Sequence record: MT446393.1
Length of the DNA: 40,612 nt
Origin: Escherichia virus TH16
Reading direction: 5' to 3' (one strand)
In this document: positions 4,022-22,778 of the stretch, one piece after another
Layout: each line of letters opens with the position of its first letter
Numbering within the stretch: the stretch's first letter is position 1
The notes under the pieces: generated by a model
The model's database searches: none
Seen by the model: the letters and a program-made list of their open reading frames with translations, nothing else
Told to the model about the DNA's origin: nothing
Program-made: the position numbers and the translations under genes

Positions 4022-4282
4022 TTACTTGCATATCAGCGGGTTAGCGTGGAGATGACTGAAGCCACCGTTGGTAGTGTGCTTGATTGTTGACCGTTGGTCT
4101 ATCGCCTTCCAGCCTGAGACCAGAAGTTTACCATCATCGGTGATTGGTCGTCCACCATACGCCAGACACACCAGCTCGGACTTATGGCCCTCTGCTCTCA
4201 GGCGGCGCTGGAGGAACATATCGCGCTGTACTTGCTCCATGCGGCTACGGCTTGATGATTTATGAGTGTATACGGTTTTCAT
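4022..4282 (-). CDS. Hypothetical early protein (86 aa)
   Basis: ATG start; stop overlaps the start of the upstream gene by 1 nt (TAATG). Confidence 0.5.
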   Translation of the reverse strand: MKTVYTHKSSSRSRMEQVQRDMFLQRRLRAEGHKSELVCLAYGGRPITDDGKLLVSGWKAIDQRSTIKHTTNGGFSHLHANPLICK

Positions 4283-4479
4283 TACAGTTTGCTCCCAAGA
4301 GTTGCGATGTCCCAGACGTTCGCTAAGTTGCGCATGAATCGTCCGTTAGGTTGACGTACAGTCCAGCGACCCAGACGTACATAGTTGAATTTGTAGACTT
4401 TACACGCCTTGTTGATGTCTCTCACCAGCACGTAGGCGATAAGTACATAGCCTATGGCTATCAATAGTGCAGATATCAT
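4282..4479 (-). CDS. Hypothetical early protein with an N-terminal hydrophobic helix (65 aa)
   Basis: ATG start; MISALLIAIGYVLIAYVLV hydrophobic N-terminus. Confidence 0.5.
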   Translation of the reverse strand: MISALLIAIGYVLIAYVLVRDINKACKVYKFNYVRLGRWTVRQPNGRFMRNLANVWDIATLGSKL

Positions 4480-5966: not shown

Positions 5967-6064
5967 CACTTTCTGTCATCTGCCTGTTGTTCGTATGACT
6001 TATCAGGCTGTCTACTTGACCGGGATGACCCGGCGTCTTCACTATCCGGTTGTTGCCGTGTCGT

Positions 6065-6107
6065 GTTGACGGAAGTTATTTAGCCATAGTCTAGACCTAT
6101 AGTCAAT
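6065..6107 (-). promoter_or_regulatory. Candidate host sigma70 promoter (T7 A1-like)
   Basis: Minus-strand TTGACT, 17-nt spacer, CTAAAT. Confidence 0.3.
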
Positions 6108-6329
6108 AGGTAATTTGAAATAATATTGATTAAGCTATCGTCGGCCCCATAGTGACTAAGAGGATATAGTCTTTGACTAACATGTATTAGACCTTAAGTC
6201 TATATCTTTGTGTCTATTAACTGTAGGTCTGTGACTGTAAGCTGTGAGTGTCTTATGGTTGTGACTGTAGGTTAGTGAGACTGTAGGTGTATGACGTAAT
6301 GTTATACTATAACACTATACAGATAGAGA

Positions 6330-6502
6330 CTCAGAGACAGACCCATAGTCCCAACCTATCGTCCAACCTCCAGCCATAGCCACTACCTATCGTCGACCTA
6401 ACGTCTTGACCATCGGTCCAACCCTATGATAGACTGGGGTAGGGCCTTTGGTCTGACTTAAAGAGGGCCTATGGGGAGACTTTAGGTTCTTGAACTGTGA
6501 GA
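6330..6502. repeat. Collapsed terminal-repeat region; physical genome left end near 6502 on the minus strand
   Basis: Minus strand from 6502 reads TCTCACAGTTCAAGAACCTAAAGTCTCCCCATAGG..., resembling remembered T7/T3 left ends; repeat extent is an estimate. Confidence 0.45.
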
Positions 6503-6739
6503 TGTGGTCTCAAACTTTTGGTCCAAAACTCATCGTCACTACTGTAGGCCTAAGCCACTGTAGGTCAAGGACCGTAGGTCAGGCGACACTAGGATAGACC
6601 AATAAGTAGGATGACCCTAAGTGAGCTTCTATTAAGGTGTTACCTAAAGTCCTTGACTACAGTAGCTAAGGTCAGTAGAGTAGCGTCAGCTATGAACTGA
6701 CCTTAGGTCTTACGCTCATGAATAGTTACCATGATTGCG

Positions 6740-6898
6740 TTAATTACACTGAGAGACCAGAGAACATACGAGAGTCTCGACCCACCCGACCCACTGACTT
6801 CCAGCAGTAACGCCAGCAGCAAGTAGAACAGCAGCAAGAAACCTGTATGTAGCTCGATTGGTCGCCAGAGCTTTAAGTACAGCTTTGGTCTTTGCCAT
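6740..6898 (-). CDS. gp19.5: gp19.5-like small hydrophobic protein (52 aa), not in the ORF track
   Basis: AGGAGG RBS; position after terminase; translation MAKTKAVLKALATNRATYRFLAAVLLAAGVTAGSQWVGWVETLVCSLVSQCN. Confidence 0.45.
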   Translation of the reverse strand: MAKTKAVLKALATNRATYRFLAAVLLAAGVTAGSQWVGWVETLVCSLVSQCN

Positions 6899-7078
6899 AT
6901 GCTACATACCTCCTGTATCTATGGTCGGTGACTATCTGTATTGGAGGGATTATGATTAATATCACCCTCCTTCCATCGGTGCAAGCCTTAGGTAAGAACT
7001 CGGAGTCTGCCTCCTAAGGTCTTGCATAAAGTCTGCATATGTATATTCACTACAGTAATACTATAAGTAACCGGGGGT

Positions 7079-7101
7079 CTTCCCTATAGTGATAGTTAAG
7101 T
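7079..7101 (-). promoter_or_regulatory. Phage RNAP promoter downstream of terminase, reading toward the genome end (phiOR-like)
   Basis: Minus-strand CTTAACTATCACTATAGGGAAGA. Confidence 0.6.
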
Positions 7102-7195
7102 CCAAACTTCTTGTAAAACAGTAGGTTAGACTGGTAGTAACTATAGGTTACTAACTGCGTATTCATGCAGCTTTCACCTATAGTTATTCATTCAG

Positions 7196-8962
7196 CTAGT
7201 GGAGCGTAACGTATGACCCTAGTCCAAGCTCGTCGTCCGTATCGTTAGTTACCCGGACCCCATTGTCCCAGAACTCAGTGTGGATGGACTCGAAGCCTTT
7301 CCGTGGGTTCTCCATCTGTTCCTCCAGCCACTCCTCAGTGACTTCACGTTCGCCTTTGTTGGCATCCTTCGCCATAGACTCAACGAAGAACTGTACACCG
7401 ATAGCCAGCGCATCAAGTCGGTCATCGTGTGCCAAGGCTCCACGCTCACGAGAGATACGGGTCATCTGGTAGAAGAGAGAGTAGATAGGGTTACGAACAC
7501 CGTCCTTATCAGAGGCCGACTGGTAGTCTTGGACGATAGCAGCAGCGTTAACGATAAGTCGGTGAGACCCCATGATAGGCTCCAGAACGTCACAGATGCG
7601 GAGTTCTTTCTGACCCTTACTCTTCACTTCAGTTACAGCAGCAGGATGGATACGGGCCGCTACAGGCTTGAATAACTCAAGGTACATACCATCACCGAAG
7701 TTACCCTCAATGACGTATTCGTTTACCTTCCACTTACGACCAATCTTAGCCAAGGCTTCTAGCGTAGAGTCCTCATAACCACCACGCATACCTCCAACTT
7801 CCATAGCGAAGATGTAGCCGTTGAGCTGATACAGTACCGCATAGCCAGTTTCATCCTTACCACGACCACTAGGGTCAATGACCAGAATCTTCTGGGTGTA
7901 CGAACTGAAGGCAGAACCTACAGTCTGATACGTGTGGTATGAGTCACCCATGAGTCCAACGTTAGGAACGTCCTCACGCTTGTTCTGAGGGTTTGGCAAC
8001 CATTGGTAGACCATTGGGCTGGACGCTGGGTCCAAGTCCGCTACGATAAGGTCACGGAGCTTCAGAGGGTACTTCTCAGCATCACTCAGGTTCGGGTTAA
8101 GCATGAACTGCAGAGCGAAGCCAGCTTTACCATAGGACAGCTCACGTTCCTTCAGGTCCGTATCATCGAATCGTACCTCATCGGTCGGACGCCAGTAGAA
8201 GGGCTCAGGGTCCTCTTCAAGCTCTGCCTGAAGCATCGGTGCCAGACGGTCGCCGTAAGACTGCCAGTCCTTCCTGTCGCGTGGATAACGAGCCGGCCAG
8301 ATAGTAGTGGTATATCCACGGCCTTCAAGCTCACGATACAGGGTCATCTCGTTCTGAGGAGTACCCAGATAGATGATTGTGCCTCCAGGCTTCAGGATAG
8401 CGTCGAACTCTTTAACAAGCTCTGACAGACGGTCTCGTGCAGCCTGAGTCGCTGAGTTGTTAGGAACCTCCACGTCATCTGCAATCAGGATGTCAGCACG
8501 ACTACCAGTCAACTGACCAGTGATACCAACGGACTTAACCGAAGGTGAGTGGTCTGGCTTGGCTGGCCCAACGTCGAAGCTGATAACCGCATCTCGCTGT
8601 CTCTGCTTAGGTTTGAGTTCCTGAAGCTGAGGCATGAGGTCGATGATTCGCTTGATGAAGATGGAGTTAGCATCTGCTCGTTCCTTTGAGGCCGACACAA
8701 TCATGAACTTCAAGTCTGGGTTGTTCCATAGTTTCCAGACCACGAAACCACAGGTCAGAAACGACTTGCCAATACCACGGAACGCCTGAAGGATGAAGCG
8801 GCGATTATCCCCAGCAGCCAGCTTCTTACACATATCTATCTGGCAGCGGGTTGGAACCGGAAGGCTAAGAGCTTTCCAGAGAACGAAGATGAAGAACACG
8901 AAGTCGTCCCTCATCCTTTGGGTCATTTCTGCCTGTCTTTCAGCGGGTGTTTTCTTAGACAT
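7196..8962 (-). CDS. gp19: Terminase large subunit / DNA maturase B (588 aa)
   Basis: Length and sequence similar to T7 gp19; ATG start and TAG stop checked. Confidence 0.95.
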
Positions 8963-9392
8963 ATAGTCCCTCCAACATTAGGTCCCGGACAGCGATAGCC
9001 TCCTCTAAAGTGGGACGTGTTGTGCGCATATAGGCATTCCCGCGTTTAACCTGAATCCTATAACCATTCTGGTGATGGGTAACGCACTTCACTCCCGTCT
9101 TAGAGTCATAATGGCTACCAGTGTTCCAAGTGTTCTCAGCAGCAGTAACGAGCCGTAAGTTACTTAAGGTGTTATTGCTAGGGTTCCTGTCGATGTGGTC
9201 TATTTGCATACCATGTGGTATAGGACCATTGGTTAGTTCCCATATCACACGATGCGCCCGCTTACTGCCTAGACTTCGTGTCTGTACTATCCAATATCCC
9301 ATCAGACTTAATGTCCCCACAGGCTTTCCAGTCCTAACGGAGCCCAGACCGGATGGACTAGCCGGGTCCACTTTGTAGTAATCACTTAACAC
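8955..9392 (-). CDS. HNH homing endonuclease with a C-terminal AP2-like domain (145 aa)
   Basis: HRVIWEL...[20 protein letters not shown]...EN HNH motif; GTG start with AAGGAGG RBS; paralog of 38895..39377. Confidence 0.8.
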
Positions 9393-9819
9393 CTTGGAGC
9401 CTCCTTATTGTGTCCTGAAGCGCCTTCTCCTTAAGGTCTGCCTCCTGAGTTATTCGGATAATACTTTTAGAAGTTTCTGGGTGTAGTTCGACTCTACCAT
9501 TAGGGAAGCATCTACTGACATCTGACTCGATGAGACCTGAGGTGTTGACTCGGACGCGCAGCCGCTTGTTATCGCGGTTAAGGTCAGCAATAATCCTATC
9601 AGTAGAGCCTTCCAGCGCGGACATCTTGTCTTGCCACTCGGCTGACACTTTGTCGAGTTCACCTTGGACAGCAGCCCGTTGATTCTCTCGTGCCTCAAGT
9701 TTCGTGATGTACTCATTGTTTACCTTCGCCTCCCACTTATTGTCTGCCACCCAGTAGCCTGAACAGAACAGGAGTCCTGCCACCAGCCAAGGTACGCATC
9801 TACGTAAAAGTTCGAGCAT
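9382..9819 (-). CDS. gp18.5: Rz-like i-spanin (145 aa)
   Basis: N-terminal transmembrane segment then a charged coiled-coil-like region; position after the small terminase. Confidence 0.7.
   Translation of the reverse strand: MLELLRRCVPWLVAGLLFCSGYWVADNKWEAKVNNEYITKLEARENQRAAVQGELDKVSAEWQDKMSALEGSTDRIIADLNRDNKRLRVRVNTSGLIESDVSRCFPNGRVELHPETSKSIIRITQEADLKEKALQDTIRRLQGVK
9450..9716 (-). CDS. gp18.7: Candidate Rz1-like o-spanin embedded in the +1 frame of Rz
   Basis: Embedded ORF with hydrophobic stretch then ...AITSGC lipobox-like cysteine; start uncertain because the n-region from the first ATG is unusually long. Confidence 0.35.
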   Translation of the reverse strand: MSTSRNLRHERINGLLSKVNSTKCQPSGKTRCPRWKALLIGLLLTLTAITSGCASESTPQVSSSQMSVDASLMVESNYTQKLLKVLSE

Positions 9820-9878: not shown

Positions 9879-9926
9879 CATAAAGGCCACTACATATAGT
9901 AATGACCTTGAGTCTAACACTTAAGA
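9879..9926 (-). promoter_or_regulatory. Conserved hairpin element, candidate RNase III site (R18.5-like position)
   Basis: ATAAAGGCCAC...AATGACCTTGAGTCTA block shared with 33349..33398. Confidence 0.35.
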
Positions 9927-9929
9927 GAT

Positions 9930-10193
9930 TTATTGCACTCCATATCCAGTGTCATTATCTTCCGTAGCGGAGAGCACCTTATCGTACTCTGCGTTCAGTG
10001 CCTCCATATCAGCGAGCGTCTTCTCGTCAACAGACACCTTGCTTAGCACGAAGTTGTGACGAGCCAGTAGCTTCTCAATGGCGTTGTAAAGCTGAGGTGA
10101 ACGCTTAGTGTCATCCCGCAGGTCTTGCAGCATGAGTCGAGCACGTTCAGTATCTAGCATTAAGAGGAACTTCTCTAAGTCCATCTGCGTCAT
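9930..10193 (-). CDS. gp18: Terminase small subunit / DNA packaging protein A (87 aa)
   Basis: Similarity to T7 gp18 (LMLDTERARLMLQDL...SPQLYNAIEKLL). Confidence 0.8.
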   Translation of the reverse strand: MTQMDLEKFLLMLDTERARLMLQDLRDDTKRSPQLYNAIEKLLARHNFVLSKVSVDEKTLADMEALNAEYDKVLSATEDNDTGYGVQ

Positions 10194-10384
10194 GTTTTAC
10201 CACCTCCTTTAATCGTTTTGTAGACTAGCACACCAATCTGGGCAACGGTGTACGCGATAGCTGCAACGTAGAACCATTCGTTCAGTGTAAGTCCGAAGAA
10301 GAACCTACTGGCACCATCAGCCGCAGCGGTCCCGACGATAGGAGAGGCTTTAAGGACCTCATTCTTGAAGTCTAACTCAATCAT
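10190..10384 (-). CDS. gp17.5: Holin (64 aa)
   Basis: Similarity to T7 gp17.5 (FFFGLTLNEWFYVAAIAYTV). Confidence 0.85.
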   Translation of the reverse strand: MIELDFKNEVLKASPIVGTAAADGASRFFFGLTLNEWFYVAAIAYTVAQIGVLVYKTIKGGGKT

Positions 10385-10489
10385 AAAACCTCCAGTTTAA
10401 AGCGGGTCGTCCGTGACCCAAAGTTGTTACCATACGTTGGTCAGCGTGTAGATAGAGTAAAGAGATGGGAACCATCAGAGCCATTGATA

Positions 10490-13051
10490 TTAAATGGTTT
10501 TTACTTCCCATCGACGGTCATAATAGTGGCTGAATCCACAATACGTTAAAGTCATATGGACAACCGCCATTGACATAGAAGCAGTCGCGGTATCAACACG
10601 AATAAACGTTTTACCGCCCGCCACCATTTTACTTACGGTAATCCCATCAAGAGATTTATCCCCGGCATCCTTATTCGACCATAGAACACCAGAGGCTACG
10701 TTTGCTTCTGTTGACCCAGAAATACTAAACAATAACCGACCTCCTGCTTCGGTGCCCCTCAGCCCATTCTTATTTACGGGTATGATAGACATCTCCCCCG
10801 CCAGAAAGCACCCACCTTCAAATCTGCTTTCTTCTCCAACAGCGGTAAGAAGGATATCTACACAACGGTTCCACGGTAGGATGAACGACGCTGTCTCAGT
10901 TCGTACTTGTCTGAAATACGCTTCGCTGTTAACCGCTGCGGATGACATAAGCACCCCGTTATATGAATTTGCACCTTCAAGTGGCGCAGACCCGTAAACC
11001 CTGCCTCCGACGGATGAGCTTTTTACAAGTGTGTTAGAGTAGACAGCAGTGCCATCGGTGAGTTTGATGAATCTGAACATTTCGCCAAAATAGAACGAGT
11101 TACCGTATGCACCAACGTTAAGGCCGTCCACCTTATTTATCAATTGGATAGTATAATCGGATTTTACATACCCGGAATCCAATACAATACTACCTTTAGG
11201 CATGCGTGATTCATTCTTCGGCGGGGTTATAAATCTCAATACCCCAGTATTCATAGACGACTGAATCCAACACGACACGTTGCGAAACACGACTTTATAG
11301 GTATCGTCAGTTCCTTCGTATGCGGAAAAGTCTAACGCATCGACGCCGTTTATACCCTCTATCCCTAAACCATCGATCTCCAAGCTGCGGATATTACCCA
11401 TAAAAGAGTGAGGCTTGATACACCCGTCAGCAGCGATATTCGTCGATTTTATGTACACAATGGGTGCGCCTGATGCGGGCACTTCAGGGGCATATGTAGT
11501 ACGGTTAATCGCTGCGCCCCATAAATAGCCGTAGTCGCAGTGGTGCGCCCATATCGCTCTCATATCCAGCGAGGTGGAACCGGATACCGCAAAGCCATAG
11601 GTGCAATCGTAAGCATAAAGATTGCTGACAGTGCTTACGAAAGCAGCATTAGGGAACGCGAATTTGTAGTGATAGAACTCGACGTTATTTATGTCAAACA
11701 GCTTGCCTCCACCACCGTTTGTCCCGGGATCACTTATCAGTAAAGGGCACCCGGAATACGCGCTATCTGCGTTACGAAACGCGATGTTATTTACGTGCGG
11801 ATTGTGCGCCCATAGGGTTGAAATAAACCCGCCTTTCCCTGACGTGTAAATAATGCTCTGTCGTGGTTTGACTCCTCGTAAGTCTAAACTCTTGCCAGCC
11901 CATCTGTTTAAGCTAATATCAATCTGGGTGGTACCTATGTAGATTGGCTGTTCGATTAATAAAGGAATATTGTGCGCAATACTTGCGGTATACGCAGCCA
12001 GCATCGCGGCCCCGTCGTTATGGGTTCCGGAAAGGTCGGCAGCCCCCATGCTTGGCGCTTTAGGATATGGAGTTCCCTGAATGGTGCTGCCGTCGATATA
12101 TGGAGCATCCATCCATGCGCCAAACATTTTAGGGGTAATTCCCCGAACGTTTGATAAGTCCCTTTTCCAGCGCTTACCTCCACTAGTAATTATAACAACG
12201 CCATTATCATCATTAGTTGTGGAATCTGCTAAGTCCGCATAGAACCACCCACCACCAGAATCACCAGACTCATTGGGTGTAATTGATGTTGTATGTTTTT
12301 CTACAAAAATGCGCTGGCCATCAACATCAGGTTCAATAGTTCTTAATGTTGATATATCATCGCATTTGCCGATTAACTTAAATCCATCGCTTTTATTTAA
12401 TTGACTCCTTAATGAAGCATCACCAACACTAACCCACGCACCTAGTCCAATCCCACCGGAAGTTTCAGGAGTTGAACCAGCAGGAACGTTCTTTGGAAGC
12501 GTACCATCCCAGCGGTAATAATCACCATCCTCTTCCCATAGCAGGACCTCGTTCCATGTTGTAACGTTGAAGCCTTTCTCGAAGGAGCGACGGGTAATAT
12601 AGCCAATTCGACCAGCTTCCTTGATACTCGCAGCGATTCCTCGTGCTTCGTCCTCGCTATCCTTAGCGTTGCCAGCAGAGGTACCAGCAGCATCGGCATA
12701 TTCCTTCGCTAAGTCAACCGTTTGGTCTCGACCTTCTTCTGCAATATGGATAGCCTGAAGCTCTGCATTGGTCAGGTCACTAGCTGTCAACACTGAGCCA
12801 TTCCTGAAGTCTACCACTAAGTCAGTTCCAGTCTGACGGTGAATACGAACGATGTCGAAACCTGATTGGTCAACCAACATCTCAATCATCGTTGGATTAA
12901 GGAATCGGTAATCTCGACCAACTTCCAGTACACGGTTCATGGTAGGGTTAGAGCTATTCACCAGCGTAACAACAACAAACGTTCTGGCTAGGTAGTCGAA
13001 CTCAATCCTGTACTGAGTGTTTCCTGAAGGGAATTGTGTAATAGTGGACAT
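10490..13051 (-). CDS. gp17: Tail fibre / tailspike (853 aa): T7 gp17-like N-terminal adaptor with a large unrelated C-terminal region
   Basis: N-terminal ~150 aa align with T7 gp17 ([28 protein letters not shown]); the rest is Gly/Ser/Thr-rich and not T7-like. Confidence 0.9.
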
Positions 13052-13097: not shown

Positions 13098-13120
13098 GTT
13101 TCCTATAGTGATAGTTTAGT
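13098..13120 (-). promoter_or_regulatory. Phage RNAP promoter (phi17-like) overlapping the 3' end of gp16
   Basis: Minus-strand ACTAAACTATCACTATAGGAAAC. Confidence 0.7.
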
Positions 13121-16100
13121 CCTTGATGTGAATACCTTGCTCCTCAAACGTTCCAAGCAGCAACTTCTGGGTAATCGGGTCGTTCGGAACCAGTTCACGG
13201 AACGTGTTATACATCCCGGTCATGTAGTCCCGCTCATTGACACGAGTATCCGCCTTTAGGTATCCAGCCAAGTTATAAGCCGAAGCACCAACGTTAGCAG
13301 CATATCCAAAAGCTGGAACCTGCTCCAAGAAGTTACCAACGACATTCATCACAGGGTCACTTGTAGCCGCGCCATATGGGATAGCACGTTCAGGCTTCTC
13401 TGTAGGTGAACGAGGTAGGATAGACGAGCGGAGCAGCTTAGTGTCCTCATACCCAGCGATGCCACCTAGAATGTTAGCTACCCCAAGTGGGCCACCCAGA
13501 TGTGAACTACGGGACAGAGCCGCATATCCAATCATCATCGGGTCCAGAGCTTGCTTGAGGTATTCACGGTCTCTTCCATCCTGCATAGCGTAAGCCTTGA
13601 CGTGAGCCTGAGCCATGTAGTAGATACCAGCCAGACCCATAGACATCACGGTAGATAGAGCAGCATCCATCGCTCGGTTGTTCTTCGTGGAGTTATAGAA
13701 GGTACGCATGGTTCGCCCATTGATGGACTTGATGACGAAGTTCTTAAACTGAAGGACAGTCTTAGCGAGAGGACCATACGCCTTGGCGTCCATGTTTGAC
13801 AGCTTGTGGGGCCGGAGTAACGTTTCGTCAGCGATGGTGTCACCCATACGCCACAGGTCCATAGCCCTTGGGTCCTGACTGAACGCCTTCTTGTCCTTGA
13901 TGGTATACTTCCCGTCTGGACCACGAGTCACTGACTCACGGATTAATGACTTAATGCCCTTCCACTGCTCATCAGATATACCAGCGGTCTTCAGCCAGCG
14001 GTCATCGAACTTACGCTTACTACCAGTAAGGCTATGCTCAACGATGTCAGACAGGAAGCCTTGACGTCCAGCATCTAACAGGTAGTTGGTCGTACCATTG
14101 AGGACTTTAGTGAACGGAGAGCGTACTGCAAGTTCACCAGTGTAATACTTGGCAGTCCCCAGAGCTGTAGCTGCCCCGCGACCTAAGTCGCTATAGGAGC
14201 GCAGACGGTCAATGACGTCCTGTTTAGACGGGCGGATTGAGTCATCAAGTTCCTTACCGAAGAGAACATTGTGAAGGTCCTTAATCTCTGAGGCTCCTAC
14301 CTTCTTGTTACGGAAGGCTAGGTCACGGAACATCGGGACTCCATGAAGCAGTGCACGAACGTTACCACGAGCCAGCATACCGCCAATCTCCGTTAAGTTC
14401 TGAACACCCATGTAGGCATTCTTAGCGAAGAACGATAGGTCTGTCATTGTGCGCATCACGGTAGCGAAGGCCGCATCATCAGCACCATCACGTCGAGCAC
14501 GACCAGTTAGAATCTTCAAAGTGTCACGTAAGGTAGATACTTCACCTTTCAACTTACCGTCGTCCCCAGCCTTGTTCATCATGGTCTCAACCAAGTCCTT
14601 CATGTCCTTCGTGGTTTTGCCTGTACCAGCCATGATAGCAATGTCACCATTAACTCGACGGTTGTATGCCGGGACAATCTTGTCCATGTCCCACTCACGC
14701 AGGTTGTTGACACTGAAGGTCTGCCCATTAGGTAGGACGATTGACATATCGCTATCGAACAGGTTACGAGCCTCAAGGAAGCTGTTGTTCTCCAGACCAA
14801 CCAGACCGTTGATGTTCTCTTCCATTACGGATGAACGTTCGAACTGCTCGGTGTGGGAGATACCGTAAGCCTTATCGTTGGCGTACTTATCGACCGCAGC
14901 CGCAAGCCCCTCTGGAGTCAGCGTAGGGTCAGCCTCTAAGAGTGCCTCGTCCACGCGTTTCTTTACTTCAGGTCGAGACGCATAGCTGGTCAACCATGAC
15001 TTTTTGATGGCCTCCTGCAACGCCTCTGGACTCCCAAGCTCCTTGATGTACAGCTCCTTCATCTGTTTGCTATACACATGAGGGACGTAGGTTCCCTTGA
15101 AGCGGCTACCCGGAAAGATAGACTGAGCGTCTGGGCGACCAAACATAGACGGGTTCTCCATCATCTCACGCTTGGCGTCAAACTGGTTCTTCAGCAGGTC
15201 ATAGACTTTCAGTTCTCCCGGAGTCAGTTCAGCCTTCAGGTTTCCGCTACCATCTTCGATAGCCATAGACACACGCTGGTAGATGTCCTGACGGAATGCG
15301 CCGGAGTCTCGCCAGAATGCTGTCTGGAAGTACGGGTCCTTGAGCGCCTCAGTAACCGCATCGTCGATGTCGTTGTAGAACCGATGGTCCACAGCACGAA
15401 GTCTCTCGAATACGTCTGACGCAGTGGTCCCGATTTTACCTGAGGCACCGGACTGCATACCAGTCGGTGAACGCACTAAGTCAGCAGCGACTCCACGAAT
15501 CTCAGGGTTCTCGGACCGAAGCAGCTTCAGGCCAATCTCAGTCAGCCCACCAAGGTTCACACCAGCAGCCGCACGTTCAGGCTCAATCACTTCGTCAAAG
15601 ACTTGACGTGTCTTAGGGTTCAGAGGGTTCTCACCAATCAGGATTGAACCATCTTCCAGTCGTACACTACCCGGCTCGTTCGGAACGTCTGCGAACTTAA
15701 CACCTTGATGACTGAAGGTCTGCTCACCTTCCTGAATAGGGAGACGAGACAGGTCCTGACCATCAACGTTACGAGCGGTCTCGCGAGCTTCCAGACGTGT
15801 AGCTGGACCAGCAAACTCATTAGTGTTGCGACCTAAGGCTCTGCCTAATCCATCAGAGATAGCAGTCATACCACCACCGAAGAGAGCACCACCAAGGATA
15901 GCTTCAGCCACATGAGCATCACCACCAGCCACTGAGGTACGGGCCATCTCGGACACACCAGCCAGTGCTCCAGATTGAGAAGCCACGGTGAACATCTTGT
16001 TGACCAGCTTACCACCTTTACCCACCTGTCCAGCGATAGGAACGTAGGTTAGAGGATCCACACCAGCACCAATCACACCAGCGGCTAACTGAGCACCAGT

Positions 16101-17003
16101 CCCAGCCTTGGCCTTCTCTTGGTCCAACTTCTGGTTCTCAAGCGCCAAGTTAATAAGCTCGGTCAGGTTCTGAGGAGAGCCACCAGTAATGACTCCGTAA
16201 TACTGAGGCAGAACCCCAGCGTTACGAATCTGGTCCAGCTCCTCACGCGACCACTTATGGTTGTTCCAGCGGGTCGGGTTGAACACATCGCCAATGACAT
16301 CAAGTGAGTCCTCGGTCTGACCAGCGCGGATAGCCACGCCGACCATAGAGTTCTTCACTTCAGCTTCTGTAGCCGCACCGAAACCGAACCACGTAGAGCG
16401 GTCCTCTCGTTCCTGCATGGTCTCCCCAGTAGCTTTATAGAACATCTCACCGAACGATTCGTTGGGAGCTTCAGGTGCTTGACCCTCAATGTTTAGACCA
16501 GCAGCGGTCGGAAGGTTATCGCCAAGAGCTACTTTAGGTTTAGCCTTGAGTCCTTCCGTGAGTGCGTCAAATACGTTAGCGCTTACTGGTGGAGTCTTTG
16601 GGCTGATACCGTTTAGTGCTCTTGCGACTCCCTGTTGGTAGACTTCAGGGTCGTACCGGGATCCTGTCTCATGGAAGCTGATAGCTTGAGCCAGAGAAGA
16701 CAGGGTGTCAGGGTCCGATAGGTCTAGACTCTGGGTAGCTGGAATACCAGTTGCAGCCACCACTGAGTCAATATAAGCCTTAGTGTCGTTCTCGTTAGGA
16801 GGCGCCCATCGGTTGATAATCTTCTCGATGGAGTCATAACCTTGGCGACCGTAGGACAGCAGGTTTTTACCTAAAGCTCGGACGCCAGACTCTGGACTAT
16901 CGAAGGTGACGAATGCGCCATCATCTCCAGTCATTCCTTCCCATTGGTCCTTACTTACCCGGATGTTACCCGGATTGTTATTGCGAATACCACGAGTCGC
17001 CAT
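13116..17003 (-). CDS. gp16: Internal virion (core/ejection) protein D (about 1295 aa from the ATG)
   Basis: Long central and C-terminal similarity to T7 gp16 (LVRSPTGMQSGASGK, NYLLDA, AYGISH); track ORF begins with TTG at 17021, ATG at 17003 has AAGGAG RBS. Confidence 0.9.
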   Translation of the reverse strand: MATRGIRNNNPGNIRVSKDQWEGMTGDDGAFVTFDSPESGVRALGKNLLSYGRQGYDSIEKIINRWAPPNENDTKAYIDSVVAATGIPATQSLDLSDPDTLSSLAQAISFHETGSRYDPEVYQQGVARALNGISPKTPPVSANVFDALTEGLKAKPKVALGDNLPTAAGLNIEGQAPEAPNESFGEMFYKATGETMQEREDRSTWFGFGAATEAEVKNSMVGVAIRAGQTEDSLDVIGDVFNPTRWNNHKWSREELDQIRNAGVLPQYYGVITGGSPQNLTELINLALENQKLDQEKAKAGTGAQLAAGVIGAGVDPLTYVPIAGQVGKGGKLVNKMFTVASQSGALAGVSEMARTSVAGGDAHVAEAILGGALFGGGMTAISDGLGRALGRNTNEFAGPATRLEARETARNVDGQDLSRLPIQEGEQTFSHQGVKFADVPNEPGSVRLEDGSILIGENPLNPKTRQVFDEVIEPERAAAGVNLGGLTEIGLKLLRSENPEIRGVAADLVRSPTGMQSGASGKIGTTASDVFERLRAVDHRFYNDIDDAVTEALKDPYFQTAFWRDSGAFRQDIYQRVSMAIEDGSGNLKAELTPGELKVYDLLKNQFDAKREMMENPSMFGRPDAQSIFPGSRFKGTYVPHVYSKQMKELYIKELGSPEALQEAIKKSWLTSYASRPEVKKRVDEALLEADPTLTPEGLAAAVDKYANDKAYGISHTEQFERSSVMEENINGLVGLENNSFLEARNLFDSDMSIVLPNGQTFSVNNLREWDMDKIVPAYNRRVNGDIAIMAGTGKTTKDMKDLVETMMNKAGDDGKLKGEVSTLRDTLKILTGRARRDGADDAAFATVMRTMTDLSFFAKNAYMGVQNLTEIGGMLARGNVRALLHGVPMFRDLAFRNKKVGASEIKDLHNVLFGKELDDSIRPSKQDVIDRLRSYSDLGRGAATALGTAKYYTGELAVRSPFTKVLNGTTNYLLDAGRQGFLSDIVEHSLTGSKRKFDDRWLKTAGISDEQWKGIKSLIRESVTRGPDGKYTIKDKKAFSQDPRAMDLWRMGDTIADETLLRPHKLSNMDAKAYGPLAKTVLQFKNFVIKSINGRTMRTFYNSTKNNRAMDAALSTVMSMGLAGIYYMAQAHVKAYAMQDGRDREYLKQALDPMMIGYAALSRSSHLGGPLGVANILGGIAGYEDTKLLRSSILPRSPTEKPERAIPYGAATSDPVMNVVGNFLEQVPAFGYAANVGASAYNLAGYLKADTRVNERDYMTGMYNTFRELVPNDPITQKLLLGTFEEQGIHIKD

Positions 17004-17007
17004 TATG

Positions 17008-19290
17008 TTACTCCTTACCAATTAGTACGTTTGCGATACCCTCCAGTGAGACGTCATTATACATCCCACCGCGCTTCTCGATGTTGGCCTCTCGGTCAGC
17101 TCGACGTTTGTCACCAGCAGCTTTAGTCCCGACGATACGCGCTCGCTTGTTAGCGTCACGTTCTGCCTGAGCATATGCGGCATCTTGTGCCTTCTGCTGT
17201 TGTTCGCGGTAGAGTTTACCTACAAGTTCTTTATCGTAGCGAATACGAATAGTCCCTGTAGCGTCTTGGAGGAAGATAGAGCCATTCTGTTCAACAACGG
17301 ACAACTGAGAGTTTACTACCCAAGGGTTGGCCTTAATGAGCTGCTTACGAGCGGTGTCGATAATGTCTCGACCAACCTGCCACGACTCTGGGTTATCCCC
17401 AACCATAAGCTGGTGTTTGGACACCATGCCGATGGACTTACCGTCAGAACCTTCAGACTGGAACGTTACTGTGTTCTCATTCAGCCAGCGTTGAGTCTGC
17501 TGAGTTGCAGCGTCAGCGTTACCTGTACGATAGTACCATGAGTCCCAGACCTTACGAGCACTTGAGTCCAGAGACGTAGGAAGACGCGAAAGGTCCTTAT
17601 TCCGAGAGTCGTTCTTCAACTCCTGCCACGCCTTGTCTGACTCCATGCGCATCTCGCGGCTTTGACTTGCAGCTTGCTTATCAGCTTCAATCATCGTCTG
17701 AGGGTCCAGACCCATCTTGTCCATCTGGTCGAACGTAGAGAACAACTGAGCTTGGTCAGGATACAGAGCAGCAAAACTTGAAGGGTCCTGAGTGTAGGCA
17801 CGACGCAGGGACTCAAAGCGTTGCATCTTGTCTGGGTCGTACTGCCCACGGATGACCGCAGCTTGCCACTCACCAGCAGCGTCCTGAGTCAGCGTCTGGA
17901 AGGCATTACGGAACGGACCATTGTTAGTGTCAGCCCTTAACAATGCCACCTTCTGCGCGTCCTTAGCAGCCTCAGGGATGTCCATCTTGTCAATCTGCTG
18001 TAGCTTGGCAGACGCATAGTTGTTCATGTCAGAACGCTTGAACTCGCCTGTAGCATCTGAGACCGGAAGGTCCTCATAGTTGGTGGACACGTTGTCACCA
18101 GCCAGCCGTCGCTGATACACTTGGTCTATGACCAGTTGCTTGTTCTGGGTCTGGATTAACTTAGTGTTCTCCTTCGCCTGTTCAGCGGACTTACGCTTAA
18201 CCGCTTCCAGTAAGCTGGCTTCGGCATTAATAAGCATCTGACGCTGAGGCGTTAGTTCTTCACCCGGCTGAAGCAGGTTGTTCTGCTCCTTGAGTTTCTG
18301 AATCTGGGCCAGACCAATGGTTGGGTCATCCTGAAGAATCGCAGACTGAACGCCTAGCGCCAAGTCTTCCTGATACTTAGCCACCAGTTTATACTCAGTA
18401 CCTTGGGCCTCAACCATAGCAGCATTGAAGACGTCAGGTCCTACAATCTCTTCGATGGTAGCGTCAACACCGTTAAGGGTGATACGCTCGCCACGGACTT
18501 GCTGTAGGAAGTTTGAGCCTCCTGACTTCTGGATTGCGTCACGGACCGTCTGGGTGATAACCTCTCGTGCTCTCTGGTCCGAAGGTATAGCAGCAGTCGT
18601 CAGTCCATCCCGAAGGTAGGCCATGAAGGTCTTTCCAGACTCAGGCGAACGCATCAGGTCCCCATCGTTAAGGAACGAGTTCAGCTCAATACGAGTGTTC
18701 AACATTGCTGTCTCTTCAGACTGCTTGCTGAAATACTTATTGAAGGACCCGTAGATAGCGATGTTTCGGTCAGTGATGTTATCGTTGAATCCACGCTGGA
18801 AGAACTCGTCGGTAGGGTTAATACCCGCCTCTTCAGCATAGGACTTAGCGGCATCCTGAAGTCGCTGGTGGCGATATTCTTCCATCTCCTGACGTGTGCG
18901 GAACTCACCGTTCTGAATCTTAACGTTAATCTCGTCGTCTACAGCAAAGGCAGCATTACGACCAGTCTTGACTCGAAGTGCTTCCATAGCGTAAGGGTCA
19001 TCCTGATACAGCAATGTGCCGTTCTGGATAGCCTCACGTCTCTGCTGAGGTGTCAACTTACGGATAATCTCGTTAGACCGCTCGTCGGCCCGTGTCTTCT
19101 CCTCGTCTTTGAACTGCTTGTATAGTCCAGTCCCAGACTCAACGAAGTTGGTTAATGCACGAGCCAGACCGGAGTCACCAGTCGGAGCCTGAACGCTGGC
19201 TGCTTGATAGTTGACGGCGATAGTTTTACCCGGCGCTCTGCCGCGACCCATAGTCCGATTAGCCAGAGCCGATTCAATATTACTAGCCAT
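17008..19290 (-). CDS. gp15: Internal virion (core/ejection) protein C (760 aa)
   Basis: Size and position between gp14 and gp16. Confidence 0.8.
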   Translation of the reverse strand: MASNIESALANRTMGRGRAPGKTIAVNYQAASVQAPTGDSGLARALTNFVESGTGLYKQFKDEEKTRADERSNEIIRKLTPQQRREAIQNGTLLYQDDPYAMEALRVKTGRNAAFAVDDEINVKIQNGEFRTRQEMEEYRHQRLQDAAKSYAEEAGINPTDEFFQRGFNDNITDRNIAIYGSFNKYFSKQSEETAMLNTRIELNSFLNDGDLMRSPESGKTFMAYLRDGLTTAAIPSDQRAREVITQTVRDAIQKSGGSNFLQQVRGERITLNGVDATIEEIVGPDVFNAAMVEAQGTEYKLVAKYQEDLALGVQSAILQDDPTIGLAQIQKLKEQNNLLQPGEELTPQRQMLINAEASLLEAVKRKSAEQAKENTKLIQTQNKQLVIDQVYQRRLAGDNVSTNYEDLPVSDATGEFKRSDMNNYASAKLQQIDKMDIPEAAKDAQKVALLRADTNNGPFRNAFQTLTQDAAGEWQAAVIRGQYDPDKMQRFESLRRAYTQDPSSFAALYPDQAQLFSTFDQMDKMGLDPQTMIEADKQAASQSREMRMESDKAWQELKNDSRNKDLSRLPTSLDSSARKVWDSWYYRTGNADAATQQTQRWLNENTVTFQSEGSDGKSIGMVSKHQLMVGDNPESWQVGRDIIDTARKQLIKANPWVVNSQLSVVEQNGSIFLQDATGTIRIRYDKELVGKLYREQQQKAQDAAYAQAERDANKRARIVGTKAAGDKRRADREANIEKRGGMYNDVSLEGIANVLIGKE

Positions 19291-20420: not shown

Positions 20421-22778
20421 TTAGACGGAACGAGCTTTCTTAGCGTATGACGCCTCCCAGCCACACCCAACGATTGACACTGGGGTAGGATAGTCGGACT
20501 CTAAGGTTAGACTCGTGGTTAATGCGTTACCATTCATAGCGAAGCGATACTGCCCGTCACCAATGTTTGTAGTCCCGATGGTTTGCTGCCCAAGGGTGTA
20601 CCCGTTGAAGGTATTCACGAACTCCCGCTCACCGTTTCTGACAATGAGTCTCAGAGCGCCAGTGTCTTTGTAGTTGACCCAAGCCCGACGAAGTTGTAGA
20701 CGACCAGTGTCTTCAGACTGAGTGCCACTATCATCTTCAATCTTAATCAGGAACCGTGAGAACTTGTAGGACATCAGATAGGACCGTCCGATGAACACTG
20801 TGCGTCCTGACCAATCGCCGTTGAGGATAACCACAGTAGAGCTACTGGTCAAGTCCCCAAGGTCCACATAAGCACCCTGACTGTCAATCAGATAGTACCG
20901 ACCGGGAGACGGAGAGTTGCCACCATAAGCAGCACCAATGTCAACCGTAGTCTTATAGGTGTCAGAGTTGTATGAGCCATTTGGTATTACCATAGACACC
21001 TTGGAGTCAACGTGGAGTCTATACGGCTCTAATGGAAAGTCAGTTGCCTCCTTGATGAACTTAAGGTGCTCAAGGTCCACACCGCCTTGGTGCTGACGAA
21101 CAATGAACATGGTAGAGCCAATCGACGCAGACGCCAGAATCTTATCAGCTTTAGGGAACTCCCAGTGCGACCAAGAGGCTTGAAGTTGTACGCCGTCCTT
21201 AAACAAGAACTTGTAGATGTAGATTCTGTTGTATGCACCTGTAGAGTTGACGCAGATGTAGTTCTCAGTCCCTGTACCTTGAATGTCAAACACCCCGTTA
21301 GGGATATAGGACAGTACGTGGCCAGTAGTATCATCGGCATCCTTCACGTCAGACACATCTGCTACAGCGAAGTATCGCTTAATGCTGGTGAATGACCCAC
21401 GAGGCGCTGAGAAGAAGACTGAGCGTCCTACAGCGAACGGTCTGGCATTATCACCTAAGGCAAACTCTGAGCCTACATCAAGCTGGATAGACTTCGAGGT
21501 AAGGACCCCAGAGCTTGTCATCACGAACTGAACCTCATCCGACCAAAGTAGTAGCTGCTCGCTAAACGGAACGGCGTACTTAAGGATTGAGATACGAGGG
21601 TGACTTACAGCTACATCAATAGGGTCATCATCACTCAGTGTCGCCACACTCTTAGGGAAGAACGCAAAGTAGCTGGCTGAACGGCTCATAATTACGTTCT
21701 CACCCGACAAGAACCCAAGTCTGTTCCTGTAGAAGAACACATCATTAATCGCAGCATCCACGAAGCTAGGCATAGGGTTTGTGTCATCGTTACCAGAACC
21801 ACGCTTGGACCAATCCAGAGTTTTGAACTCAAAGGAGCCATCAGACTGTCTTACCAGAGCATGTGGCATTGTGGTGACATCGAACCCAGTGACAACTCCA
21901 GGCTCCACTGTCTCCTTCCACGTCTTAGTGTTGGAGTCATACATCACGTAGTATTCATCGGCGCTACTGTTTGTCTCACCTTGAATCTTAATGATATACC
22001 CATTAGGAGCTGCAAGAGGTAGTTTAGAGATTGTCTGCACAGTGTCTAGGACTGGGCTTATTAGCTGGTTAGCGTAGCCATCCTCCGTCTCCACTGAGTT
22101 AATGTCGGTCCCTGAAGGAGCTGTGATTAGCAGGAAGCCAGACCCAAGGTCAAACGTGAAGGTAGGATAGGCAGTAACAAGAAGGTCTCTCAGAGCTGCA
22201 CCAATGGCTTGAGCGTCCACCTTAGGTGGGTCATTCTCGGCATCATTACCTGCTGGTAGCTTATGCGAGACCTTAACTCCACCATTGATTCCAACCTTAA
22301 GGGTTCGACCATACTGTCCACCACGCAGGTTAATTAAAGCCCGTGCTTTGCGGTTATAACCAGAGTGTGACTTCTCGCTTCCACCTTTGACGACAACCTT
22401 ACGGTTAACGACGAACGTATAGTCTGCCACGGTAACGACACGGATGTCATCTCGCGGGTTGGAGGACTTAACGTAGTCTACCTCACCGGACACTGAGTAT
22501 TGATTGCCACTCAAGTCAACTACCTGAATGTTGGACCCATTGAACACTATGTAATACTGCTCATGCGCGTCACGGTTAATCAGGTGGAACTTAGGGTTGC
22601 TCCCAACGTCGATGCTAAGACGTCGTTTGAAGACTGTAGGTGGGCGCTTCTGGAGTCCATCACTCTCGGATGACCAGCAGTTAACCTGTGCCTCGCCTTG
22701 GTCTGAGAACCTCAGTATATCAGGCTGTTGGCTAATGCCACCTTTAAGGTTCTTGATTGATTGAGTAATTAGTGGCAT
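20421..22778 (-). CDS. gp12: Tail tubular protein B (785 aa)
   Basis: Size and position match T7 gp12. Confidence 0.9.
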   Translation of the reverse strand: MPLITQSIKNLKGGISQQPDILRFSDQGEAQVNCWSSESDGLQKRPPTVFKRRLSIDVGSNPKFHLINRDAHEQYYIVFNGSNIQVVDLSGNQYSVSGEVDYVKSSNPRDDIRVVTVADYTFVVNRKVVVKGGSEKSHSGYNRKARALINLRGGQYGRTLKVGINGGVKVSHKLPAGNDAENDPPKVDAQAIGAALRDLLVTAYPTFTFDLGSGFLLITAPSGTDINSVETEDGYANQLISPVLDTVQTISKLPLAAPNGYIIKIQGETNSSADEYYVMYDSNTKTWKETVEPGVVTGFDVTTMPHALVRQSDGSFEFKTLDWSKRGSGNDDTNPMPSFVDAAINDVFFYRNRLGFLSGENVIMSRSASYFAFFPKSVATLSDDDPIDVAVSHPRISILKYAVPFSEQLLLWSDEVQFVMTSSGVLTSKSIQLDVGSEFALGDNARPFAVGRSVFFSAPRGSFTSIKRYFAVADVSDVKDADDTTGHVLSYIPNGVFDIQGTGTENYICVNSTGAYNRIYIYKFLFKDGVQLQASWSHWEFPKADKILASASIGSTMFIVRQHQGGVDLEHLKFIKEATDFPLEPYRLHVDSKVSMVIPNGSYNSDTYKTTVDIGAAYGGNSPSPGRYYLIDSQGAYVDLGDLTSSSTVVILNGDWSGRTVFIGRSYLMSYKFSRFLIKIEDDSGTQSEDTGRLQLRRAWVNYKDTGALRLIVRNGEREFVNTFNGYTLGQQTIGTTNIGDGQYRFAMNGNALTTSLTLESDYPTPVSIVGCGWEASYAKKARSV

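Follow-up and report, generated by a model that had tools for sequence, protein, structure and literature searches.

The window, by which we mean the whole stretch of DNA that was analyzed (40,612 nucleotides; Escherichia virus TH16, MT446393.1), is a complete 40.6-kb T7-like genome whose long open reading frames (ORFs) lie on the minus strand, and Kayfunavirus phages are ~93% identical to it over most of its length. At the gp17 position (tail fiber/tailspike) of this genome, the ORF list holds a complete tailspike gene (10490 to 13051, minus strand), a single ORF of 853 amino acids (aa) plus a stop codon. The region singled out in the original prediction, 10490 to 12600, corresponds to aa 151 to 853 of this ORF. 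Upstream lies a 1,301-aa ORF (13116 to 17021, ORF list) that we take to be internal virion protein gp16, judging by its size and position and by how related records are annotated; indeed, internal virion protein and peptidoglycan transglycosylase genes are annotated in the matched 25-kb region of related Kayfunavirus records. Downstream of the tailspike gene, we found a T7-family holin (PF10746) and a small terminase (DNA_Packaging_2, PF11123), which gives the gp17-type gene order of gp16, then tailspike, then holin and small terminase. At the DNA level, no phage record in GenBank (INPHARED set, August 2025) covers more than 44% of the tailspike gene.

The same part of the genome contains a 145-aa ORF with an HNH_3 domain (8955 to 9392, minus strand; PF13392, E = 8.5e-21). 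It sits between an Rz-like spanin gene (9382 to 9819) and a 588-aa ORF (7196 to 8962) presumed to encode the large terminase, and its ends overlap both neighbors by a few bases. This ORF probably represents the insertion of a free-standing homing endonuclease.

N-terminal anchor

The tailspike begins with a T7 gp17-type N-terminal tail-adaptor domain (aa ~6 to 115; 12707 to 13036, minus strand), delimited by Pfam and by PDB chains. PF03906 matched aa 10 to 114 (60.4 bits against a cutoff of 25.2; E = 2.1e-16), and the T7 gp17 chains 7boz, 8dsp, and 8e4g aligned with aa 6 to 116 only (E = 1e-16 to 1e-17). Within the full-length T7 gp17 chain (7boz_a, 553 aa), the tailspike matched residues 12 to 122 and no others. 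Homology to the tail-attachment domain of T7 gp17 is therefore real, as the original prediction had it, but it extends over ~115 aa and not over the ~150 residues that had been proposed.

The adaptor is connected to the following domain by an Ala/Glu/Asp-rich linker (aa ~116 to 154; 12590 to 12706, minus strand), which we assume to form a helical neck. A weak LEA_4-like match (Pfam) falls at aa 104 to 132, and the linker is contained in the stretch that aligned with the solved tailspike 9vvr_A. Next comes a Tail_spike_N domain of the TSP1/Gp66 type (aa 154 to 211; 12419 to 12592, minus strand; PF18668, E = 2.5e-20), and TSP1, TSP3, and TSP4 of phage CBA120, together with other solved spikes, matched the tailspike over aa ~147 to 235.

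Residues 1 to 218 (12399 to 13051) are common to ~130 Kayfunavirus-like records at ~97% nucleotide identity, and homology then stops. The alignment with 9vvr_A covered aa 1 to 226 (E = 4.9e-136), with ~95% identity over aa 1 to 212, mismatches being counted by eye. Judged by this conservation, the genus-conserved anchor is aa 1 to ~218, with Tail_spike_N as its last part. The spike beyond residue ~150 had been described as unlike the T7 fiber. It does lack sequence similarity to that fiber, but its first portion, Tail_spike_N at aa 154 to 211, belongs to the conserved anchor.

Limits and composition of the variable cassette

The variable cassette starts at aa ~219 (window position ~12398) and ends ~35 nucleotides beyond the stop codon, at ~10455, where Kayfunavirus homology resumed in a megablast search with window positions 9900 to 10900. 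This search thus assigns to the cassette a 3' noncoding tail (10455 to 10489, minus strand). A terminator-like hairpin that follows the stop codon (10476 to 10464) is weak and not better than chance. Glycine, serine, and threonine together represent 27.6% of aa 151 to 853, versus 22.7% of aa 1 to 150 and 20.0% when eleven further large ORFs from the window are pooled; a value of 25.2% is found in another ORF (20421 to 22778, 785 aa). The predicted richness of the remainder in these three residues thus held (27.6% versus 20.0%), but the enrichment is only modest.

Fold of the receptor-binding module

We found 55 homologs of aa 221 to 853, aligned 30 sequences, and obtained an AF2 monomer model of this region. 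The model had a mean pLDDT of 83.1 and a pTM of 0.70, and only aa 665 to 709 were poorly modeled. Read against the sequence, it showed short beta strands in a long run over aa ~364 to 663, and the predicted structure has a right-handed parallel beta-helix body with a capping helix before it. When the model was searched with Foldseek against PDB and BFVD, tailspike and EPS depolymerases occupied the top ranks. Among the phage matches of highest rank, the majority had been deposited under, or given, the name of a depolymerase or glycosidase, and the single best match was to a glycosidase. The structure prediction that had been proposed for this region consequently came out in favor of the suspected beta-helix, and the modeled protein is a beta-helix spike, not a simple fiber.

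The module opens with a pre-helix beta domain (aa ~221 to 335; 12047 to 12391, minus strand), defined from PDB matches and the AF2 model. Residues ~209 to 313 matched CBA120 TSP2 (6w4q, residues 250 to 342; 5w6p, residues 12 to 101), the AM24 spike (5w5p), and Depo32 (7vyv), and the block-mean pLDDT of the domain is mostly 80 to 95. Precomputed annotation places PF27114 ("Phage_tail_beta") on nearly all homologs, and we used this label for the pre-helix domain. The capping helix (aa 347 to 359) and the right-handed parallel beta-helix (aa ~336 to 665), designated D3, occupy 11057 to 12046 on the minus strand, and the beta-helix body is the putative polysaccharide-binding and catalytic domain.

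Between the helix and the C-terminal domain, AF2 and block identity delimit a variable region (aa ~666 to 716; 10904 to 11056, minus strand). Its core (aa 665 to 709; model residues 445 to 489) has a pLDDT below 50, and aa 631 to 720 form the least conserved 30-aa blocks in comparison with most of the homologs. This region may be a specificity loop or may be ordered only in the trimer. The spike ends with a beta-sandwich domain, D4, recognized from its AF2 strands (aa ~717 to 853; 10493 to 10903, minus strand; block-mean pLDDT mostly 74 to 91). No part of the cassette is better conserved than this domain, which has 70 to 90% identity to the spike of Kayfunavirus TH20, and we assume that it serves in trimer assembly or stability; in the CBA120 literature, the role of the D4 domain is "not clear" (PMC7506556). 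The solved homologs of the N terminus, 9vvr (18 chains) and 9lna (3 chains), suggest by analogy that the tailspike is homotrimeric.

Candidate catalytic residues

The beta-helix had no Pfam match at an E value of ≤1, either in the window protein or in the other 29 aligned homologs, and PF12708, PF13229, and PF00295 (GH28) were all absent at this threshold from the window protein and the 29 homologs. PF12708 appeared below threshold only (19.1 bits versus 27) in P0060, a remote relative that is a spike with a P22 head-binding domain and has 29% identity over aa 338 to 635. NCBIfam likewise gave no match to the beta-helix, and searches of the PDB with phmmer and with a family profile matched N-terminal domains only. 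Since the beta-helix has no solved, Pfam, or NCBIfam relative detectable by sequence, no catalytic residue could be transferred by alignment. PHROG 33504 matched aa 213 to 689 (E = 8.6e-153), and this family carries the label "unknown function." An exhaustive phmmer search with aa 336 to 853 against 1.84 billion representatives yielded only 17 matches, 8 of them at E ≤ 1e-30 (50%-identity clusters), which characterizes a narrow family. One of the 17 (P0059), a repeat protein, is spurious.

Within the family, D542, E565, and D574 are each invariant (29 of 29 members), D482 is present in 28 of the 30 aligned sequences, and D506 varies. The remote relatives P0060 and P0063 (29 to 32% identity) both retain D482, D506, D542, and E565, and D574 is also retained in P0060. 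In P0060, Y and Q stand in place of H548 and R555, two residues that are invariant in the family. From sequence conservation only, we infer that D542, E565, and D574, which are encoded in the stretch 11330 to 11428 (minus strand), are candidate catalytic residues; from the register of the C483/C505/C544 ladder, the three carboxylates would lie on one outward face. TSP glycosidases act through Asp/Glu pairs (PMC7506556). An enzymatic reading of the module is favored by its fold, by the habit of such spikes as a family, and by the conserved carboxylates. We found no report in the literature of cleavage of O-antigen, capsule, or EPS by any member of the module family.

Exchange of the module between phages

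The nearest Kayfunavirus in GenBank, TH20, shares 97.6% nucleotide identity with the tailspike over aa 1 to 380. The aa identity is ~65% thereafter, ranging from 40 to 87% per 30-aa block, so that the module as a whole (aa 221 to 853) is only 72% identical at the aa level. The comparison with TH20 places a second, internal recombination breakpoint at window position 11912 (~aa 380), within the first turns of the helix. The break at this position implies that the unit of exchange can be the beta-helix and the C-terminal domain alone.

The module was also found among the clustered tail genes of contigs that are sipho- or myovirus-like; its aa identity was 86 to 93% in myovirus-like and Kagunavirus-like ones. 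In the myovirus-like contig L005, blastn gave 90% nucleotide identity, starting at aa 181 and running as far as the stop codon. Positions 6001 to 8520 of this 39-kb contig (Logan SRR30334843) encode the module, at 93% aa and 90% nucleotide identity, behind a different anchor. The gene content of L005 includes a sheath initiator, a baseplate wedge, and RecT/YqaJ, and the phage is probably temperate. The high identity to L005 indicates that the module passed recently between this podovirus and a phage with a contractile tail. In a Kagunavirus-like siphovirus contig (L006), the match began at aa 309 and reached the stop codon, with 88.7% nucleotide identity.

At the upstream border of the cassette, blastn revealed a junction motif (aa 179 to 217; 12402 to 12517, minus strand) that is conserved at the DNA level across phage genera. 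Its nucleotide identity is 77 to 84% in three tailspike genes of the Ackermannviridae phage YX22. The copies in YX22 (L002) are ~100 nucleotides long and lie in three separate tailspike genes, at 2114 to 2220, 4247 to 4332, and 10317 to 10417. The motif is likely the upstream recombination arm. The history of the module is standard receptor-binding-domain (RBD) swapping. That the module sets the host range is supported indirectly, since it is only in the cassette that the gene departs from Kayfunaviruses whose identity is otherwise ~93% and since the module has been exchanged between unrelated phage types; the swapping is the strongest evidence of this kind.

A receptor or serogroup was not found in the literature for the carriers TH20, EC3-1, NRG857CP3, YX22, fGh-Ecl02, and Opt-719. 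Among 5,426 complete E. coli genomes, blastn detected no close prophage copy of the module, and three weak matches concerned the pre-helix domain only. By analogy, an O-antigen would be a likelier receptor than a capsule, given that the module is found in P22-like spikes and also in Kaguna- and Kayfunaviruses, genera known for receptor-binding proteins specific to O-antigen.

Discussion

We consider it probable that the tailspike combines a T7-type anchor with an exchangeable beta-helix module that binds and cleaves a surface polysaccharide and sets the host range. As the single receptor-binding tailspike of this Kayfunavirus, it would be fixed to the tail through its N-terminal ~218 aa (adaptor, linker, and Tail_spike_N) and, if it resembles solved spikes, would act as a homotrimer. 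The C-terminal ~635 aa are the exchangeable module, composed of the small beta domain, the capping helix, the beta-helix, and the beta-sandwich. A repeating surface polysaccharide of E. coli is most likely bound by the beta-helix, along an aromatic- and acid-lined face. The polysaccharide is then most likely cleaved by acid/base catalysis, as by a hydrolase, with D542 and E565, perhaps joined by D574, as the candidate residues, and cleavage would let the virion reach the outer membrane. Recombination at the junction motif (aa ~179 to 217) and in the 3' noncoding region would have brought in the module and, with it, the host range.

Other activities were weighed against cleavage by a glycosidase. 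A polysaccharide lyase or an epimerase-like spike would act by beta-elimination on a uronic-acid-containing capsule or O-antigen, with a His, Tyr, Lys, or Arg as the base. We regard this chemistry as unlikely: H548 and R555 become Y and Q in P0060 while D542 and E565 persist, no AlgE-type motif was seen when the sequence was read by eye, and the best single fold match is a glycosidase, although none of these points is decisive. Less probable still is a beta-helix spike that only binds, leaving its polysaccharide or protein receptor uncleaved, with the conserved acids in structural or ligand-binding roles. Most of the top phage fold matches are depolymerases or glycosidases, and three carboxylates that stay invariant even at 29% identity are what an active site would lead one to expect. 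A tailspike of the SGNH/esterase (deacetylase) kind was rejected, as Pfam detected no domain of this type and the predicted fold is that of a beta-helix.

The T7-like N terminus, and the endosialidases that Kayfunavirus relatives often carry according to their annotations, recall the archetypes among receptor-binding proteins in this group of phages, namely, a simple T7-like fiber or a K1F-type endosialidase (GH58). Nevertheless, we attach next to no probability to either. The match to 7boz_a is confined to the adaptor and aa 221 to 853 form a beta-helix, which led us to reject a T7-like fiber shaft or tip. The endosialidase was rejected as well: DNA homology to the matching Kayfunavirus records, among which some carry an endosialidase annotation, ends at aa 218, neither a beta-propeller nor a sialidase or Peptidase_S74 domain was matched (Pfam), and the predicted fold is a beta-helix, neither a beta-propeller nor a fiber.

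Within the preferred reading, that of a polysaccharide-cleaving beta-helix module on a T7-type anchor, a more specific proposal seems to us possible rather than probable. Residues ~336 to 853 may constitute their own family of glycan-degrading enzyme, with their own constellation of D542/E565/D574 and Cys ladder, directed at an O- or K-antigen of E. coli and transferred very recently among podo-, sipho-, and myoviruses.

The tailspike belongs to the ordinary, modular type found in phages and represents a new allele within a well-known kind. As one further case of RBDs being swapped between phage families, it leaves a well-documented picture unchanged. Its practical value lies in the cassette limits, the junction motif, and the candidate catalytic residues that it provides for a spike family without a characterized member. 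The module would be the main determinant of the E. coli serotypes adsorbed by the phage, and the cassette limits (aa ~219 to 853; window ~10455 to 12398), together with the junction motif, could be used in host-range prediction, in phage therapy cocktails, and in chimeric spikes. If the glycan substrate were assigned, dozens of spikes in phages and prophages would be annotated in one step.

Comparison with known spikes

TSP2 of the Kuttervirus CBA120 (5w6p/6w4q), an O157 O-antigen glycosidase, is 16% identical to the window spike in structural alignment. The catalytic residues of TSP2 (D506, E568, and D571) could not be mapped onto the window protein, and the beta-helix is undetectable by sequence. 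The anchors also differ, since the window spike has a T7 adaptor whereas TSP2 has the N terminus of a branched TSP complex. By sequence (Pfam, E ≤ 1), the window spike is not a member of the pectin-lyase-fold enzymes compared, namely, GH28 polygalacturonases, GH87 glucanases, AlgE epimerases, and Pantoea WceF, and no motif characteristic of GH28 was seen in it when the sequence was read by eye.

The tailspikes of other Kayfunaviruses (9vvr_A, K1F-type endosialidases, ZG49, and TH20) share the gene position and a near-identical anchor with the window spike, but their receptor-binding modules depart from it at aa ~219, or at ~380 for TH20, which bears a paralogous version of the window module. 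An endosialidase propeller and a C-terminal chaperone domain are absent from the window spike (Pfam).

The module itself is carried by other phages, including the Kagunaviruses NRG857CP3 and EC3-1, the Agtrevirus-like phages fGh-Ecl02 and YX22, and the T1-like phages Opt-719 and PhleaSolo, as well as by P22-like proteins (named "phage tailspike protein" of E. coli by NCBI). In these Kagunavirus, Agtrevirus-like, T1-like, and P22-like carriers, homology extends over the full length of aa 221 to 853 at 50 to 69% identity, and the cysteines of the ladder, like the conserved carboxylates, are shared with the window spike. Their anchors are different, consisting of a P22 head-binding domain (PF09008), of Tail_spike_N only, or of long Ackermannviridae N termini, and their annotations read "hypothetical" or "tail spike." Four T1-like records of ~48.3 kb (OL539447, OL539451, OL539453, and OL539467) gave identical tailspike matches at 53.7% identity and were deposited with different hosts (E. 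coli, Klebsiella, and Serratia), which looks like a metadata inconsistency or the repeated isolation of one phage.

RBD swapping at conserved junction motifs, proposed to be recombination hotspots, was described by Pas et al. in 2023 (PMC10408124). The mosaicism of the module is consistent with that model, and the junction motif of the window spike has the position of motifs 1 and 2 of that study.
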